Source: Escherichia phage T5. From it: a stretch of DNA of 64,000 nt. A program made the position numbers and the translations under genes. The stretch lies in the sequence record NC_005859.1; one strand, given 5' to 3'. This document shows positions 1,795-59,710 of the stretch, piece after piece. Numbering within the stretch: the stretch's first letter is position 1; the number at the start of each line of letters is the position of its first letter. Under the pieces are notes generated by a model, which saw nothing but the letters and a program-made list of their open reading frames with translations, was not told the DNA's origin and searched no databases.

Positions 1795-4581
1795 GTGTTT
1801 TCTATCCTCCAAGGTCACGCCGGATTTTCTCGTGATTTAGCAACAGGTATTTGGCGAGAAATCAAAGCGGAAGATTATACCTTTGCCAAGCGATTCTCGA
1901 AAGAGCATCCAGAAGGTAAACCAGCTTCTATGCCCTTCAAATTTGATGTAATAGAAGAGCACGACCCACAAAGCCTTGCCGAAATGTTACCCCTCATGAG
2001 ACGTTTAACGTCTGACCCTCATATCGTTGCGGTGCGAGGTCGATGTCTCGCACCTAAAAATAATGTGCGACGTAAGAAAGGTAACTTTAATGTATCTAAT
2101 CCTAGTAATATTATTGCTATGGACGTGGATGGTATCCTAGATACCGGTGGGTATGACAAATTTAATCTTGTTGGTATGGCCCGCCACATTATTAAGATGT
2201 TGAATAGTATTAGTGAGGATATGTTTCCTCTTGATGCAGGGTTTATTGCTCATGCATCGTCTTCGGCTGGGCTAAAACCAGGTATCCGAATGCACTTAAT
2301 GCTAGAATCTAACGTCAAGGTAACTCAGGGTCAGCTAAAGTTCTTATTTACATCTATCAACGATAGTAGTAAGCAAAAATTTGGTTTTGATATTGCCGAC
2401 CTAGCTTATTATTCATCTGTCCAGCTCCACTATTTTGCCGACCCCTTATTTAGCGATGGTATTGTTGATCCGTTTAAAGCGGAGAGTAAGCCACGTCTGG
2501 TGTATGTTAAAGGTTCGAAAGTAAATTTGCCCAATAATCTGGTTGACTATGAAACAACTAGAGGGGAGTTTAAGGAAGAGTTTTATTCTTTACTTGATCA
2601 AATTAAAGGCAAAAAGATTGCTTCTGATAAAGTAGAAGAAACCATCAGCGAGTTAGAAGAGGCTGATGATGGAGTGTATTTGCGTATTATCCCCAAACTA
2701 TACCATAGAGCATTAGAGGATGGTGTTGATTTTGCATGGCTAGAACGTGAGATTAAACCAGCTTTATCTGAATATATTGCAACTAAAGATAACAGTCGTA
2801 ATATTCAAGATTACTTTAATAACGGTCGTAAGCAGGCTCTCAAAGCGTTTGTTAATAATTCTAAACGTGAGATTCCATTAAATCTGAAAGGTGTTCCACT
2901 TAAGAAATTAGAAGTGGATTCTCCACCAGAAGTTCCATACCTGAAGATTAACATTGTGCCCCCAAAAGGCCATATAACATTTGTTAAGGCAAGTCTTGGT
3001 ACTGGTAAAACTACGGCAGTAACTAAATGGCTGGACGCAGGTGTTCTTCCAGGCAACTTTTTAGCAGTTACAAATACTAGAGCACTGGTATCTTCAAATG
3101 CCAAGAAATTTAGTGCAGGACAATACGATAAGTCTGTAGATATGCTCAACTTTAAACGTGGAGCTATCGATCGTATGTCCACAACTATTCACTCTTTGCA
3201 TAAGTTCAAAAGTTTTATTGGGCAAATAGACACCATTTTTATTGATGAATGTGACGCTGTAATGAATGACCTATTATTCGCCCCTGTTGTTAAACAACGT
3301 CGCGAGTGTATTCAAGTTCTACGTGACATCCTTATGACAGCTAAGACTGTAATCTTATCCGATGGTGATATTAGTGCTGAGACGATTGAAGCATATGGTT
3401 CTCTAATTGATTTTGATAAACCAGTAGCATTTTATAATCATCACCGTAAAATGCTGTCAAAAGCACACGCTTATGAGTTTCCTGATGAATCCAGTATTTG
3501 GGTTGCACTTCAGACTTCTCTAGAGATGGGTGAGAAATCTATTCTAGTATCTGATTGTGGCCCGGATGAGCTGAATGAGAAGGGTATGGCACTGCGTCGT
3601 AATACGGGTGCGTTAGTTAAGGAAATCCATTCAAACTCCACCTCAGATGTGGATATTCGACGTATTCTGGATTATACAACTAATGAGCTAATTGATCAAC
3701 AAATTGATTGCTTATTATGTAGTCCATCCGTAACGAGTGGCGTTGACTTTAACTATTTCGATAATGTGTTTGTTATTACTAGAACCAGTAATCAAGCGCC
3801 AAACATGCGTTTCCAAGCAATCAGGCGCGACCGTGGTGCCCAGAACATCTATTATTTTATTGATAAATCTACGAGTGGATTCTCTGCAGGTTCTGAGCAA
3901 TATAATATTGATGAAGGTTGGCTGGAGTTAGCACAGCAATTATACGCACGTCGTAGAGAGCTGGAATCTAGAAACTATACTAGTACCTTACGTTATTATT
4001 TGCTTGATCAGGGTGCAACTATTGATATTTTCAGCGAAAGCTGGGGAACTATTGAAGGTGCTGGTAAAGAATATACAGAAGAGCGAATCAAAGCTATTCT
4101 GCATTCAACTCCAGATTATTGTGCCCCACGTCATGCAGATGCATATGAAGCTAAACTACTTCTTGTTCGCTATTATCATCTTGAGTCTATTAAAGATGTA
4201 ACAGTTGAGCATGTCGAACAATATATCAAAGATAAACCGAATGATCGAGCTGCATTCTTCCATAAGATGCACGAGATGTTCTGGGAAGATATTAAGAAGT
4301 GTTCAAATGTGACCATTAAACCATTCATAGAGGCTCTGAAAGGTAAGAAGAAAGACTTCTTCCTTAAAACAGGTCAGAGTGCCAACCCAAAATATGCTAG
4401 AATGTATCTTGGTATGATGGGTATTGGTAAGGATATGAACACTGAAAATATTGTAGACTGGTACAGAACCTATTGTAAAATCGAGTGTATGCCAATTCCT
4501 TTCAAATTCATGACAGAGGAAGAGAGGGCTATGGCAGAAGAAGTAATGTCCGAACTTGGAGCAACTAATGAAGATGCATAA
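1795..4581 (+). CDS. large P-loop ATPase, putative replication/origin-binding helicase-like protein
   Basis: 928-aa ORF, GTG start with RBS aggag; Walker A LGTGKTT; Walker-B-like FIDECD. Confidence 0.7.
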   Translation: MFSILQGHAGFSRDLATGIWREIKAEDYTFAKRFSKEHPEGKPASMPFKFDVIEEHDPQSLAEMLPLMRRLTSDPHIVAVRGRCLAPKNNVRRKKGNFNVSNPSNIIAMDVDGILDTGGYDKFNLVGMARHIIKMLNSISEDMFPLDAGFIAHASSSAGLKPGIRMHLMLESNVKVTQGQLKFLFTSINDSSKQKFGFDIADLAYYSSVQLHYFADPLFSDGIVDPFKAESKPRLVYVKGSKVNLPNNLVDYETTRGEFKEEFYSLLDQIKGKKIASDKVEETISELEEADDGVYLRIIPKLYHRALEDGVDFAWLEREIKPALSEYIATKDNSRNIQDYFNNGRKQALKAFVNNSKREIPLNLKGVPLKKLEVDSPPEVPYLKINIVPPKGHITFVKASLGTGKTTAVTKWLDAGVLPGNFLAVTNTRALVSSNAKKFSAGQYDKSVDMLNFKRGAIDRMSTTIHSLHKFKSFIGQIDTIFIDECDAVMNDLLFAPVVKQRRECIQVLRDILMTAKTVILSDGDISAETIEAYGSLIDFDKPVAFYNHHRKMLSKAHAYEFPDESSIWVALQTSLEMGEKSILVSDCGPDELNEKGMALRRNTGALVKEIHSNSTSDVDIRRILDYTTNELIDQQIDCLLCSPSVTSGVDFNYFDNVFVITRTSNQAPNMRFQAIRRDRGAQNIYYFIDKSTSGFSAGSEQYNIDEGWLELAQQLYARRRELESRNYTSTLRYYLLDQGATIDIFSESWGTIEGAGKEYTEERIKAILHSTPDYCAPRHADAYEAKLLLVRYYHLESIKDVTVEHVEQYIKDKPNDRAAFFHKMHEMFWEDIKKCSNVTIKPFIEALKGKKKDFFLKTGQSANPKYARMYLGMMGIGKDMNTENIVDWYRTYCKIECMPIPFKFMTEEERAMAEEVMSELGATNEDA

Positions 4582-5086
4582 ACCAATGCCTCCTATGGCA
4601 TTTATCCTAGAAAAGCTTAGGTATGACGAAAGTACCGGGGACTTAATTTGGTTATCTGGCCCAAGGAAGGGAAAGGTGGCGGGCTCCAAAATGAAAACTG
4701 GAAGACAGTTAGAGTTTACGATAAATGGGGAGCGGACAGCTTACTTAGCCCATAGAATAATCTGGTTTATAAAGACAGGCGAAGATCCTGGGGATAAAAC
4801 TATCGACCACAAAGACGGTGATAGTTTAAACAACTTGTGGGATAATTTACGTAAGGCTACCTATTCCGAAAATGGAAAGAATAAGAAGTGTTCTACTAAT
4901 TCTACCGGATTCACTGGAGTTGTAAAACGAGGTAATAGATATATGGCCTACGCTTACTGCGAGGGAAAGCAGCATATTTTTGGTAGACGAGATACCCCGG
5001 AAGAAGCCCATCAGCTATACCTTAGGGGAGTTAAAGAACTGTTTGGTGAATTTAATCCCTCGGAGAGATATGACAGTGAAGAATAA
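4556..5086 (+). CDS. HNH homing endonuclease with AP2-like DNA-binding domain
   Basis: 176 aa; AHRIIW...IDHKDGDSLNN..NLR.AT..EN HNH motif; C-terminal TGFTGV..RGNRYMAY AP2-like segment; start overlaps preceding gene. Confidence 0.75.
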   Translation: MEQLMKMHKPMPPMAFILEKLRYDESTGDLIWLSGPRKGKVAGSKMKTGRQLEFTINGERTAYLAHRIIWFIKTGEDPGDKTIDHKDGDSLNNLWDNLRKATYSENGKNKKCSTNSTGFTGVVKRGNRYMAYAYCEGKQHIFGRRDTPEEAHQLYLRGVKELFGEFNPSERYDSEE

Positions 5087-53740: not shown

Positions 53741-53850
53741 TTGGGAAATCTCGAAATTTCATAAGATTACACATGAAGGTGTGTCCACTGCCTCCGGCGA
53801 AAATACTTAGTCTGCTAACCGCCACCCCCGTTACTATTACCATGCTAACT

Positions 53851-54639: not shown

Positions 54640-54719
54640 TTTGTTACGTTCTCCATTTGAGGGATTAGATTAATTCAGCATTACCCGCTATTAAATAGCG
54701 GGTAATAATAAATTAACTA

Positions 54720-57157: not shown

Positions 57158-57253
57158 AATAATAAAACTCCATTAAAGGGATTAAAAAACGTTTGTTATT
57201 GGCAATATTGCCAAATATAACGCCTTGAATAATAGGCGTTATAATTTGCAACA

Positions 57254-57451: not shown

Positions 57452-57507
57452 TTTAAAACTCCAGTCAAAGGGAAATTATAGTGGGGAATATTCCCCACTA
57501 ATTAAAT

Positions 57508-57915
57508 TTATTCGCCTGCGGCTTGTTTTACTTCATCGGCAACGCCTAACAGTTGCGCCACGGCGTCCAGCGTTTCCAATTTTGCACTTTCCAGTGATGC
57601 CAGATCGTCAGCGTCTTTGATAATACCGGAATCGATGGCATGTTTTGCAATCACACGCACGTAGTGCGCTTTGCGGATAGAACTGCCGCCGCCAACCTTG
57701 CGAGGTTTATCGCTTTTCTGATACGCTTTCGCGCTGGTCAATTTTGAGCGAACAGACACGGGAGAAGCCGCGCCAACTGCTTTTGCAATCTCTTTTAAAC
57801 CGTCGCTATTTGCGAAATCTAAACCGTTTTCATTAATTAACTGCTGGTACATGGAAACAGCTTTCTGAGTGTTTTCTTCATTCCAAGCGAATTTTGCGGT
57901 TTTAGCGTTAGTCAT
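57508..57915 (-). CDS. A2: A2-like pre-early DNA-binding protein
   Basis: 135-aa ORF immediately after A1 in transcription order; size and position match T5 A2. Confidence 0.65.
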   Translation of the reverse strand: MTNAKTAKFAWNEENTQKAVSMYQQLINENGLDFANSDGLKEIAKAVGAASPVSVRSKLTSAKAYQKSDKPRKVGGGSSIRKAHYVRVIAKHAIDSGIIKDADDLASLESAKLETLDAVAQLLGVADEVKQAAGE

Positions 57916-58010
57916 GATGTAACTCCTGTTTATTTAATTTAAGGGATAAGATTAACATAATGTTAATCGTTATATCCCCCGAACTACTGGGGGATATAAA
58001 AGTAACACTA

Positions 58011-58262
58011 TTACGCTACGGCTTCCCATTTTTCGTTACGCTGGGCAACCTTTACAACGTCGCCGGATTTAACCCGAACGTTGTAAACAGTTTTTCCGTT
58101 GTTACTCCGTTCCGTTTCAGCGTATACCGCATCAATTACATCAAACGGCATAAGCGCCGCGCCTTTAATGCGTTCGGTTTTTCCGGTTACCTCATCCGTT
58201 TTAGTAACGAAAGGGATAAAAACGGATTGACCAATTTTTGGCGCAGTAGTAACGTTTTGCAT
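58011..58262 (-). CDS. hypothetical protein
   Basis: 83-aa ORF; GC-richer codon usage like the A1/A2 block. Confidence 0.5.
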   Translation of the reverse strand: MQNVTTAPKIGQSVFIPFVTKTDEVTGKTERIKGAALMPFDVIDAVYAETERSNNGKTVYNVRVKSGDVVKVAQRNEKWEAVA

Positions 58263-58495
58263 AATATAAACTCCAGTTTATTAAGGGGGATTGTTCCGCA
58301 TTACCTGCTGTAAAAGTAGTGGCAGGTAATAAGCAACAATCCGCTCGCCAATATAATCAATTTAAAGAACTCCACTCAGGCCGCTATATCCCAGTTAGGG
58401 GGCGGGACACATTATGGTAAGTGCCGACCGTCATATTTTATCAAGTTATCGCTCTCATCGAACTGGGTACATCTTAAAGCCTATCGGCTAGGGTG

Positions 58496-58699
58496 TCAAA
58501 CTATTTTTTGCAGTTTTTTATGATTTTCTTTCAAGTCAATCATAATGTTTCGCCAGATCATTTCCAGACCTTGCTGGCGGCCTTTCTTGTACTGCCTAAA
58601 TCGATATTTTACCGATTGCTGGGCTATTGTCAACAATTTTTTAGTAGTACCATCTAATTTTTTAGCTGGTTTACCAGTGATCAATAAAGTTTGTTTCAT
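58496..58699 (-). CDS. hypothetical basic small protein
   Basis: 67-aa Lys/Arg-rich ORF in an otherwise non-coding stretch. Confidence 0.3.
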   Translation of the reverse strand: MKQTLLITGKPAKKLDGTTKKLLTIAQQSVKYRFRQYKKGRQQGLEMIWRNIMIDLKENHKKLQKIV

Positions 58700-59191
58700 A
58701 TCGTCGATTCCTTATAATATATAAGTTTACCGCCGATAGACTTTAAGATGTACCCAATTTTTAAAGAGCGTGGCGGTAAACTTCCCGCCGTGTAGTTCGT
58801 CATTGCCGCCCTACGAGATAAATAATAGGGGATACCCAAAAATGGCGCAACCTTATTTTTGTAAAGAAACGTAAAGAAGGCAACACGTCCGGCGCTCACC
58901 TAAGTTTAAAGGAAACGGGCGCGCGAATACCATAAAACCTAGCAGGTTGGCAAGTAATTTTTTCCTTTATATTTGCCTTGCCCTAGTTGACAAATCTTAG
59001 AAAGCTCGTGGTGACGATAAACGGGTTATCCCCTTATGATGGGATGCCTGAAAAATTTACCGCGTCAGAAAGCGTTTTAGGCGGCTTATTTTCGATTTAA
59101 CAAATATTTAACAAAAGCAAAATTGAAAAATAGTTGGAAAAGATATTGACTTTTAAAAATCAAGACTAAACGAGTTATTTTATAAAATTAA

Positions 59192-59710
59192 TTAATTGAC
59201 AATTCCAAATTCAGCTTTTTTAGTTTCTACCCATAATAATAACTCTTGTAAATCATAACCTGATTTACTAACACTTTTGTTACTAGTAGGATCTTTAACT
59301 ATAGCGCGCAAATAGTTTCTTCCGTTATTATCAACTCTAGAACCATTATAATAGATATGCTTAGGCAACTTATTAGCACGCTTATAATCTTTCTTGTTAT
59401 TCATATTCTGCTTATGGTCTACTAAGCGAAGATTATTAATGTTATTATTAGCACGGTTACGATCATTATGATCGATTGTTAGATTGCTATCAATCTCACC
59501 ATTAAATAATACCCATATTATTCTATGCACTGCGTATTGTTCGCCTGCTAACTTTACTCGATAGTAACCTGTGTTACTATAATGCCCTGCAATATCACCC
59601 ACCTTACTATTACCTTTCTGTACTTTCCATCTTAGAAATGATGGGGATGTTTCATCATAATAAAAGTTATCATTAGCAAGCGAATAATCTATATCTTTAA
59701 ATAGACCCAT
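59192..59710 (-). CDS. HNH homing endonuclease with AP2-like domain
   Basis: 172 aa; AVHRIIW...IDHNDRNRANNNINNLR...HKQN HNH motif; third member of the family at 4556 and 11864. Confidence 0.7.
   Translation of the reverse strand: MGLFKDIDYSLANDNFYYDETSPSFLRWKVQKGNSKVGDIAGHYSNTGYYRVKLAGEQYAVHRIIWVLFNGEIDSNLTIDHNDRNRANNNINNLRLVDHKQNMNNKKDYKRANKLPKHIYYNGSRVDNNGRNYLRAIVKDPTSNKSVSKSGYDLQELLLWVETKKAEFGIVN

Follow-up and report, generated by a model that had tools for sequence, protein, structure and literature searches.

Two perfect palindromes lie just upstream of A2, an essential pre-early gene of Escherichia phage T5, and their role is the question raised by this locus. The initial annotation had offered two answers, operator sites for autoregulation by a DNA-binding protein or an RNA hairpin in the pre-early leader. 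Here, both are weighed against the sequences of T5-like relatives.

The palindromes and their genomic setting

All positions refer to the window, that is, the whole 64-kb stretch of DNA that was analysed. The 1.1 kb around the palindromes is that of Escherichia phage T5, with 100% identity to positions 3618-4718 of AY587007, and a window position equals the AY587007 position plus 53782. In AY587007 the palindrome region belongs to the left terminal repeat, and the minus-strand genes found here are ORF007, A2, a 65-aa membrane protein, ORF005, A1, ORF003, ORF002 and dmp. Promoters about 0.5-0.7 kb upstream of the palindromes drive minus-strand transcription of the leftward pre-early operon, and both palindromes sit within this operon, between ORF007 and A2 (Table 1). 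The product of A2 is assigned to phrog_1725 and annotated as a “DNA binding protein”, and no RNA-binding domain could be detected in it. ORF007 is listed in AY587007 as a “hypothetical 9.2 kDa protein”. Its published deletion was tolerated, with the last ten ORF007 codons retained, so that the hairpins upstream of A2 were not removed.

T5 position 1 corresponds to window position 53783 and T5 sequence runs on at both sides of it; the two terminal repeats therefore seem to be collapsed or permuted in the window, unlike the linear layout of AY587007. A 172-aa HNH-type homing endonuclease ORF (59192-59710, minus strand) splits the untranslated repeat region. AY587007 instead calls two short ORFs (009 and 010) at 59192-59710, which suggests frameshift differences between T5 records. 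The HNH insertion is absent from most T5-like phages (Davison's preprint).

Both palindromes exist and are perfect in T5. Counted from the A2 start codon (57915, minus strand), they occupy the stretch 35-84 nt upstream, within the 90 bp originally given. Their coordinates had to be corrected. The first palindrome, TTAACATAATGTTAA, is found at 57952-57966, 6 nt away from the 57946-57960 first assigned to it, and is part of a longer AU-rich repeat, hereafter named palindrome 1. The second had been described as a 10-nt stem; this stem is present, and the full perfect arms are 11 nt long, with five G-C pairs among the 11 bp. It is hereafter named the GC-cored hairpin.

Inverted repeats of this length are scarce by chance. 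For perfect repeats with 3-10 nt loops and arms of 11 nt or more, nine nested matches at six loci were found in the 64-kb window, while 20 dinucleotide shuffles gave a mean of 0.15. When arms of at least 10 nt were considered, seven loci were found in the window, four of them within 53.8-58.0 kb, the approximately 4 kb of the leftward pre-early operon. Four palindromes of 9+9 nt (centre of 0-1 nt) were observed versus 0.85 expected, all at 54.6-63.6 kb. Shorter ones are more common (20 palindromes of 7+7 nt versus 11 expected in the window). The palindrome-1 15-mer has no other copy with fewer than two mismatches in the window. A 131-nt segment in mRNA sense folds with a z-score of -3.57 against shuffles. 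Neither palindrome of the ORF007-A2 junction is listed in the AY587007 annotation, no Rfam 15 covariance model matched the site even at E <= 1, and the literature searched yielded nothing on T5 transcript processing, on hairpins upstream of A2 or on T5 and boxA.

Table 1. Positions in the window of the A2-upstream element and of related features of the pre-early operon.
Feature	Position	Strand	Description
T5P1 and T5P2	~58445-58662	minus	putative pre-early promoters (AY587007 annotation)
GGCGG/CCGCC hairpin	58772-58789	minus	directly before the T5 boxA-like element
boxA-like element, CGCUCUUUAAAAAUUGGG / CGCTCTTTAAAAATTGGG	58753-58770	minus	0.8 kb upstream of the palindromes
Inverted repeat of the ORF007 leader	58288-58342		21-nt arms, 86% complementary; just upstream of the ORF007 Shine-Dalgarno
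ORF007	58011-58262	minus	83 aa, DUF7177; upstream cistron in T5
Segment A, AUAGUGUUA	58003-58011	minus	begins at last base of ORF007 stop codon
GC-cored hairpin, arms TTATATCCCCC and GGGGGATATAA	57970-57980 and 57989-57999		11-nt arms, 8-nt loop
10-nt arms of the initial annotation, TATATCCCCC and GGGGGATATA	57971-57980 and 57989-57998
GC-cored hairpin in mRNA sense, UUAUAUCCCCC-AGUAGUUC-GGGGGAUAUAA	57970-57999	minus	11 bp, 8-nt loop
Palindrome 1, GATTAACAT-A-ATGTTAATC	57950-57968		full perfect palindrome from the inverted-repeat search; AU-rich
Palindrome 1 in mRNA sense, GAUUAACAU-U-AUGUUAAUC	57950-57968	minus
Segment B	57960-57968	minus	5' arm of palindrome 1
Segment C	57950-57958	minus	3' arm of palindrome 1
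AUCCCUUAA block	57939-57947	minus	between hairpins and Shine-Dalgarno; invariant columns in alignment A3
A2 Shine-Dalgarno GGAG and AUG	57923-57926 and 57913-57915	minus
A2	57508-57915	minus	135 aa, essential pre-early gene; 100% identical to A2 of AY587007
Motif AAUCCCUU(A)A, starts	58291, 57947, 57475, 57182, 55146, 54665	minus
Palindrome B (palB)	57479-57500		between A2 and ORF006 (AY587007 annotation)
Palindrome A (palA)	54681-54707		before dmp (AY587007 annotation)

Conservation of pairing among T5-like phages

Regions upstream of A2 were collected from 40 IMG/VR loci and 20 GenBank phages, yielding 42 distinct sequences, 31 of which make up the alignment used below (A3). RNAalifold, applied to A3 without guidance, returned precisely two elements, the 11-bp hairpin and, in palindrome 1, the outer 5 bp. 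Across the 31 sequences, 97.3% of the cells counted were paired, versus 33-61% with slid partners, and seven pairs had changed on both sides. The covariation score reached 0.244 versus 0.107 in shuffles and was matched by none of 500 shuffles, although the rows of A3 are related, so that shuffle controls overstate significance and the cells stand for perhaps six to seven independent events.

In the GC-cored hairpin, 99.4% of the cells of its 11 pairs are paired, five pairs show two-sided changes, and alignment columns 43:65 hold A-U (10), C-G (7), U-A (7) and G-C (6). A compensated one-pair insertion lengthens the stem in one lineage, and elsewhere the stem has been replaced outright with a hairpin kept at the same place (UAUAUAUUCUAG/CUAGAAUAUAUA; CGUUAUAUAUUUCG.../...CGGAAUAUAUAGCG). 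In Eos, an 18-bp stem occupies this position. The loop varies in both sequence and length (AGUAGUUC, UUAUUUCA, UGAAAUAU, CUAAU and others). One natural phage (L036) retains palindrome 1 and lacks the GC-cored hairpin, which is therefore dispensable. Changes on one side only, read in mRNA sense, gave G·U in 13 cells and A·C in one. This bias argues for selection on the minus-strand RNA, since a double-stranded protein site offers no cause for it.

In palindrome 1, the outer 5 bp are 99.4% paired in A3, with two-sided changes at two pairs in the GGCUA/UAGCC lineages. The arms GAUUAAC/GUUAAUC are near-invariant in Tequintavirus and Epseptimavirus, the outermost pair being lost in one sequence, and the centre between them is 4, 5 or 6 nt long. 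Klebsiella phages and Salmonella phage 2-3 carry GGCUA/UAGCC at this place, with one variant, GGCUA/UGGCC, that forms a G·U in mRNA sense; Eos carries GAAUAAC/GUUAUUC and Proteus phage Stubb AUAACACA/UGUGUUAU. Because the spacing varies and the arms covary, palindrome 1 is probably an RNA hairpin rather than a dimer-binding site.

Covariation thus establishes the GC-cored hairpin as a conserved RNA structure, and the alignment shows selection acting upstream of A2 on a structure of the sense-strand RNA. As judged from these comparisons, T5-like phages conserve the palindromes as structure, not as sequence, in the form of RNA hairpins of the pre-early mRNA. The proposed RNA hairpin is accordingly supported by compensatory changes, by the G·U bias and by RNAalifold, whereas its placement in a leader does not hold for T5, where the site is intercistronic.

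Assignment of the element to A2

In every lineage with the GC-cored hairpin, the 3' end of this hairpin and the A2 AUG are 44-64 nt apart. The gap to the upstream gene, in contrast, is 95 nt in T5, 224 in SuperGirl, 232 in Eos, 255 in phage 2-3 and 339 in a Klebsiella phage. In the relatives from Proteus and Vibrio, A2 has no annotated upstream neighbour, and the 240 nt before it contain a consensus promoter together with a leader that bears hairpins. The element is therefore a promoter-proximal leader in distant relatives only, and part of the ORF007-A2 intercistronic junction in T5. Because the distance to A2 stays within 44-64 nt while the gap to the upstream gene varies much more, comparative evidence assigns the element to A2 as a 5'-UTR feature and not to ORF007 as a 3' feature.

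An alternative pairing partner for palindrome 1

A third segment can take part in the fold. Segment A is complementary to UAACAUUAU, which comprises segment B and the centre of palindrome 1, and the A:B pairing stacks below the GC-cored hairpin. In the minimum free energy (MFE) structure of T5, this gives about 22 bp of helix interrupted by two 1-nt bulges, the GC-cored hairpin being the upper stem and A:B the lower stem. The A:B pairing and the B:C hairpin are mutually exclusive. For T5, the MFE structure uses A:B and the centroid structure consists of two separate hairpins, with B:C. Predicted folds thus show that the alternative A:B pairing is available in the RNA. The A2 Shine-Dalgarno in the ribosome-binding site is unpaired in both forms, so no simple translational switch is visible.

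In relatives, the choice between A:B and B:C was judged from unconstrained MFE structures, in which the long helix measures 22 bp in T5, 27 bp in L002, 25 bp in SuperGirl and 28 bp in Eos; it is also the MFE structure of L007, and these four relatives range from 24 to 28 bp. A helix of 20-21 bp was obtained for the lineages of the Klebsiella phages, of phage 2-3 and of L035. Proteus phage Stubb shows the same fold, with internal loops interrupting a shorter helix of about 17 bp.

Segment A, AGUGUUA(A)C, is nearly invariant in A3 though non-coding, and its distance to segment B varies among relatives. The A:B helix is 96.3% paired in A3, with eight unpaired cells in total and one pair with a two-sided change, in segments that are AU-rich and hence have a high chance complementarity. 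The recurrent variant GUGCUAAC leaves a C·A without compensation in 3 of the 31 rows of A3, and two more carriers lie outside the alignment. Between T5 and Eos, one position has changed concordantly in all three segments (A to U in A, U to A in B and A to U in C). Support for the A:B lower stem is therefore weaker than that for the upper stem, and the lower stem is a plausible but unproven functional alternative.

A ribosome-coupled switch, in which termination on ORF007 would unmask segment A, was ruled out as a conserved logic, because segment A is kept in phages that lack ORF007 or have its end more than 100 nt distant.

Known signals sought at the site

A promoter scan of the minus strand listed nothing promoter-like between 57916 and 58010. 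The combination of a TTAACA -35 with a TTAAAT or TAAATT -10 was not in the scan, and a promoter is also contradicted by the distance that separates TTAACA from TTAAAT and from the conserved CCCTTAAAT block, which differs among relatives over a range of 18 to 23 nt. An intrinsic terminator was rejected as well: a GC-rich stem-loop is present, but no U-tract follows on either strand (the sequence after the GC stem is CGAUUAACAUUAUG in mRNA sense and AAGTAACA on the plus strand), and the site is absent from the terminator scan. Palindrome 1 does not qualify as a degenerate boxA, with which it shares only UUAACA-UU; it lacks the GCUCU core and has more than three mismatches to the consensus GCUCUUUAACAA. 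The varying loop sequence and length of the GC-cored hairpin leave no conserved boxB loop. The DnaA-box-like site TTATCCCTT is not conserved, most relatives carrying TAATCCCTT. Two further pairings were discarded, that of the downstream UAUCCC with the 3' arm of the hairpin, where the motif is invariant while the arm covaries, and that of segment C with the A2 translation start region, where the spacer from Shine-Dalgarno to AUG varies freely.

Other signals of the pre-early operon

The AUCCCUUAA block belongs to a motif, AAUCCCUU(A)A, of which the operon has several copies. The motif stands 5-17 nt upstream of the Shine-Dalgarno of ORF007, A2, ORF006, A1, ORF002 and dmp. A variant is seen before ORF003, and all other gene starts of the 64-kb window lack the motif. 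The same genes are preceded by it in Epseptimavirus, Klebsiella (Sugarlandvirus), Eos and Proteus (Novosibvirus) phages and in L042-L048. From this distribution, the motif could be a pre-early-specific translation or shut-off signal.

All T5-like loci examined have the boxA-like element in syntenic position; in L002-L041 its distance to A2, which lies downstream, is about 830-1210 nt. Epseptimavirus and Klebsiella phages have a second copy, which in Epseptimavirus comes just after a TAAGAT -10-like hexamer, and in T5-like phages of Proteus and Vibrio (L048-L051) the A2 leader carries ACGCUCUUUAACAAUUUGG between the consensus promoter and A2. The 15-nt core GCUCUUUAACAAUUU / GCTCTTTAACAATTT is identical to a stretch with a median of seven copies per E. 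coli genome, which we take to be the rrn leader boxA region, as the copy number fits the seven rrn operons. Nothing linking T5 to boxA or Nus factors was found in the literature searched. A degenerate boxA-like sequence, GAGTTCTTTAAATTGATTA, is present at ~58355-58375, before the inverted repeat of the ORF007 leader.

Covarying hairpins also precede ORF007 and ORF006 (palB). The ORF007-leader repeat shows compensatory changes among relatives (ACCUGC/GCAGGU versus AUCUGC/GCAGAU). Both palA and palB are intercistronic hairpins of the same operon, and palB covaries (UAGUGGGG/CCCCACUA versus UAGCGGGG/CCCCGCUA, that is, GUGGGG/CCCCAC versus GCGGGG/CCCCGC) and is followed by the CCC motif that recurs in the operon; some relatives have unrelated hairpins in its place. 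Two perfect hairpins were also seen inside the short ORF005 on the minus strand (TATAACGCC...GGCGTTATA at 57216-57243 and TTGGCAATATTGCCAA at 57200-57213), just upstream of the A1 ribosome-binding site; they are kept upstream of A1 in CitS1, SuperGirl, Klebsiella and Eos phages.

Proposed function and rival explanations

A post-transcriptional function of the element is most likely, and we infer cleavage, the nuclease and an effect on A2 expression. We propose a cis-acting RNA structure in the A2 5' UTR that would most likely be an RNase III-type processing or stability site, a proposal on which our judgement is about evenly balanced. In T7 early mRNA, RNase III sites have a helix of about two turns with small bulges and lie between cistrons of an early operon transcribed by the host polymerase. 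The T5 element has a matching anatomy. The transcript could adopt two forms: in form (i), segments A and B would pair as a lower stem under the GC-cored hairpin to give one irregular helix of 20-28 bp, and in form (ii), the GC-cored hairpin and the self-folded palindrome 1 (B:C) would stand in tandem. Host RNase III would cut the lower stem of the long helix, leaving the upstream RNA with the GC-cored hairpin at its 3' end, where it would block 3' exonucleases. The freed segment B would refold with C, so that the palindrome-1 hairpin would become a 5' stabiliser of the A2 message, and the A2 ribosome-binding site would stay open. Refolding after the cut is suggested by the extra segment C. A plain decay barrier is also a possible role of the element.

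Several other explanations were weighed against RNase III-type processing. The element could be a translational operator, an RNA bound by A2, A1 or a host factor that sets or shuts off A2 synthesis, which we regard as unlikely. It accompanies A2 across genera, and the GAUUAAC/GUUAAUC arms and the AUCCCUUAA block are invariant in Tequintavirus and Epseptimavirus while their surroundings drift. A2 is annotated as nucleic-acid-binding, and the A1-dependent shut-off of T5 pre-early protein synthesis a few minutes after infection, known from the classical literature, would suit such an operator too. However, the loop and most of the stem of the hairpin vary, unlike those of a sequence-specific operator, the hairpins stand well away from the AUG and leave the Shine-Dalgarno uncovered, A2 lacks a detectable RNA-binding domain, and the similar hairpin modules before other genes of the operon leave nothing specific to A2. 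These modules also count against the operators for autoregulation initially suggested, a proposal that we found poorly supported. As duplex sites for a dimeric protein such as A2, acting on pre-early transcription or on first-step-transfer DNA, the palindromes would have to be read as DNA, which is quite improbable even though both are perfect in T5 and A2 is annotated as DNA-binding. Segments A, B and C do resemble three half-sites (A/G)TGTTAA(T)C that change together in Eos, as would also be expected of half-sites of a co-evolving binding protein. Half-sites of fixed spacing were not found: the palindrome-1 arms are separated by 4-6 nt and differ in other genera, and the A-to-B distance is variable. 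No promoter overlaps or adjoins the site, the arms of the GC-cored repeat vary with compensation and so preserve complementarity rather than sequence, the one-sided changes favour G·U on one strand by 13 cells to one, and the 15-mer has no second copy in the window.

A transcriptional pause, attenuator or partial terminator before A2 and A1, possibly overridden by boxA-dependent antitermination, would account for the stable stem with its GC core, for the boxA-like element upstream in the same transcription unit and for the A:B and B:C alternatives, which resemble an attenuator layout. We nevertheless consider it very improbable, as neither alternative structure makes a terminator, both hairpins lack a following U-tract on both strands, the site is missing from the terminator scan, and the genes downstream are the essential A2 and A1. 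It is hardly credible that the palindromes have no specific function and are chance features of AT-rich intergenic DNA or recombination relics. Short AT-rich palindromes are indeed common, as the 7+7 nt count indicates, and one phage (L036) does without the GC-cored hairpin, but the pairing survives at least five kinds of compensatory change and wholesale stem replacement, long perfect repeats are rare in shuffles, and the position relative to A2 is conserved across genera. Covariation has largely refuted this explanation.

A wider conjecture, rather doubtful but worth stating, is that segments A, B and C would form an RNA switch or a processing-coupled refolding device that sets A2 dosage, as one module of an operon-wide programme; that programme, taken jointly with the switch and in the same low degree of likelihood, would combine rrn-type boxA antitermination where the leftward operon begins, a conserved hairpin at nearly every junction between cistrons and a pre-early-specific signal, AAUCCCUUAA, upstream of each Shine-Dalgarno. 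The shut-off of pre-early protein synthesis, long known, could have the AAUCCCUUAA signal as its target. Taken with the CCC motif and boxA, the element suggests a greater dependence of T5 pre-early expression on host RNA machinery (Nus factors, RNases) than hitherto described. A conserved RNA structure attached to A2 across several genera also offers a mutable target for studies of post-transcriptional control, and this intergenic sequence is worth preserving when minimal T5 genomes are engineered.

Comparison with known RNA elements

The closest comparison is with the RNase III sites of T7 and T3 early mRNA (R0.3, R0.5, R1.1, R1.3), which like the T5 element are intercistronic and belong to an early operon transcribed by the host polymerase. 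The predicted T5 fold shares with them an irregular hairpin of about 50 nt with upper and lower stems, small bulges and about two helical turns, conserved in structure rather than in sequence. With 22 bp, the predicted T5 helix reaches the length of about 20 bp or more expected in the transcript at an RNase III site. Support for maintenance of the whole helix is uneven, with strong covariation in the upper stem and, in the lower stem, 96% pairing, one two-sided pair and uncompensated C·A variants. RNase III cleavage in T7 provides the upstream message with a protective hairpin at its 3' end. The T5 element differs from the T7 sites in having no sequence similarity to them, in a third segment (C) that permits a second hairpin and in the weak covariation of its lower stem.

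The lambda pL leader comprises a promoter, nutL boxA and boxB, an RNase III-sensitive hairpin and the gene N. A comparable order is seen in the Proteus and Vibrio T5-like phages (sigma-70 promoter, boxA, hairpins, Shine-Dalgarno, A2), and T5 itself has a boxA-like element earlier in the same transcription unit. Unlike in lambda, the T5 hairpin loops vary and are not boxB-like, and hdi and ORF007 lie between boxA and the hairpins; we know of no N-like protein in T5.

The ompA 5' stem-loop, REP sequences and the malE-malF hairpins share with the T5 element a stable stem-loop with no U-tract, located between a stop codon and the next ribosome-binding site, and like such stabilisers the T5 hairpins occur several times in one operon. 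Simple stabilisers lack the three-segment alternative pairing found upstream of A2. Closest at hand are palA and palB of T5 itself, objects of the same kind in the same operon which, unlike the A2-upstream palindromes, are annotated in AY587007. By these comparisons, the A2-upstream element is an as yet unannotated conserved RNA structure of a familiar general kind.
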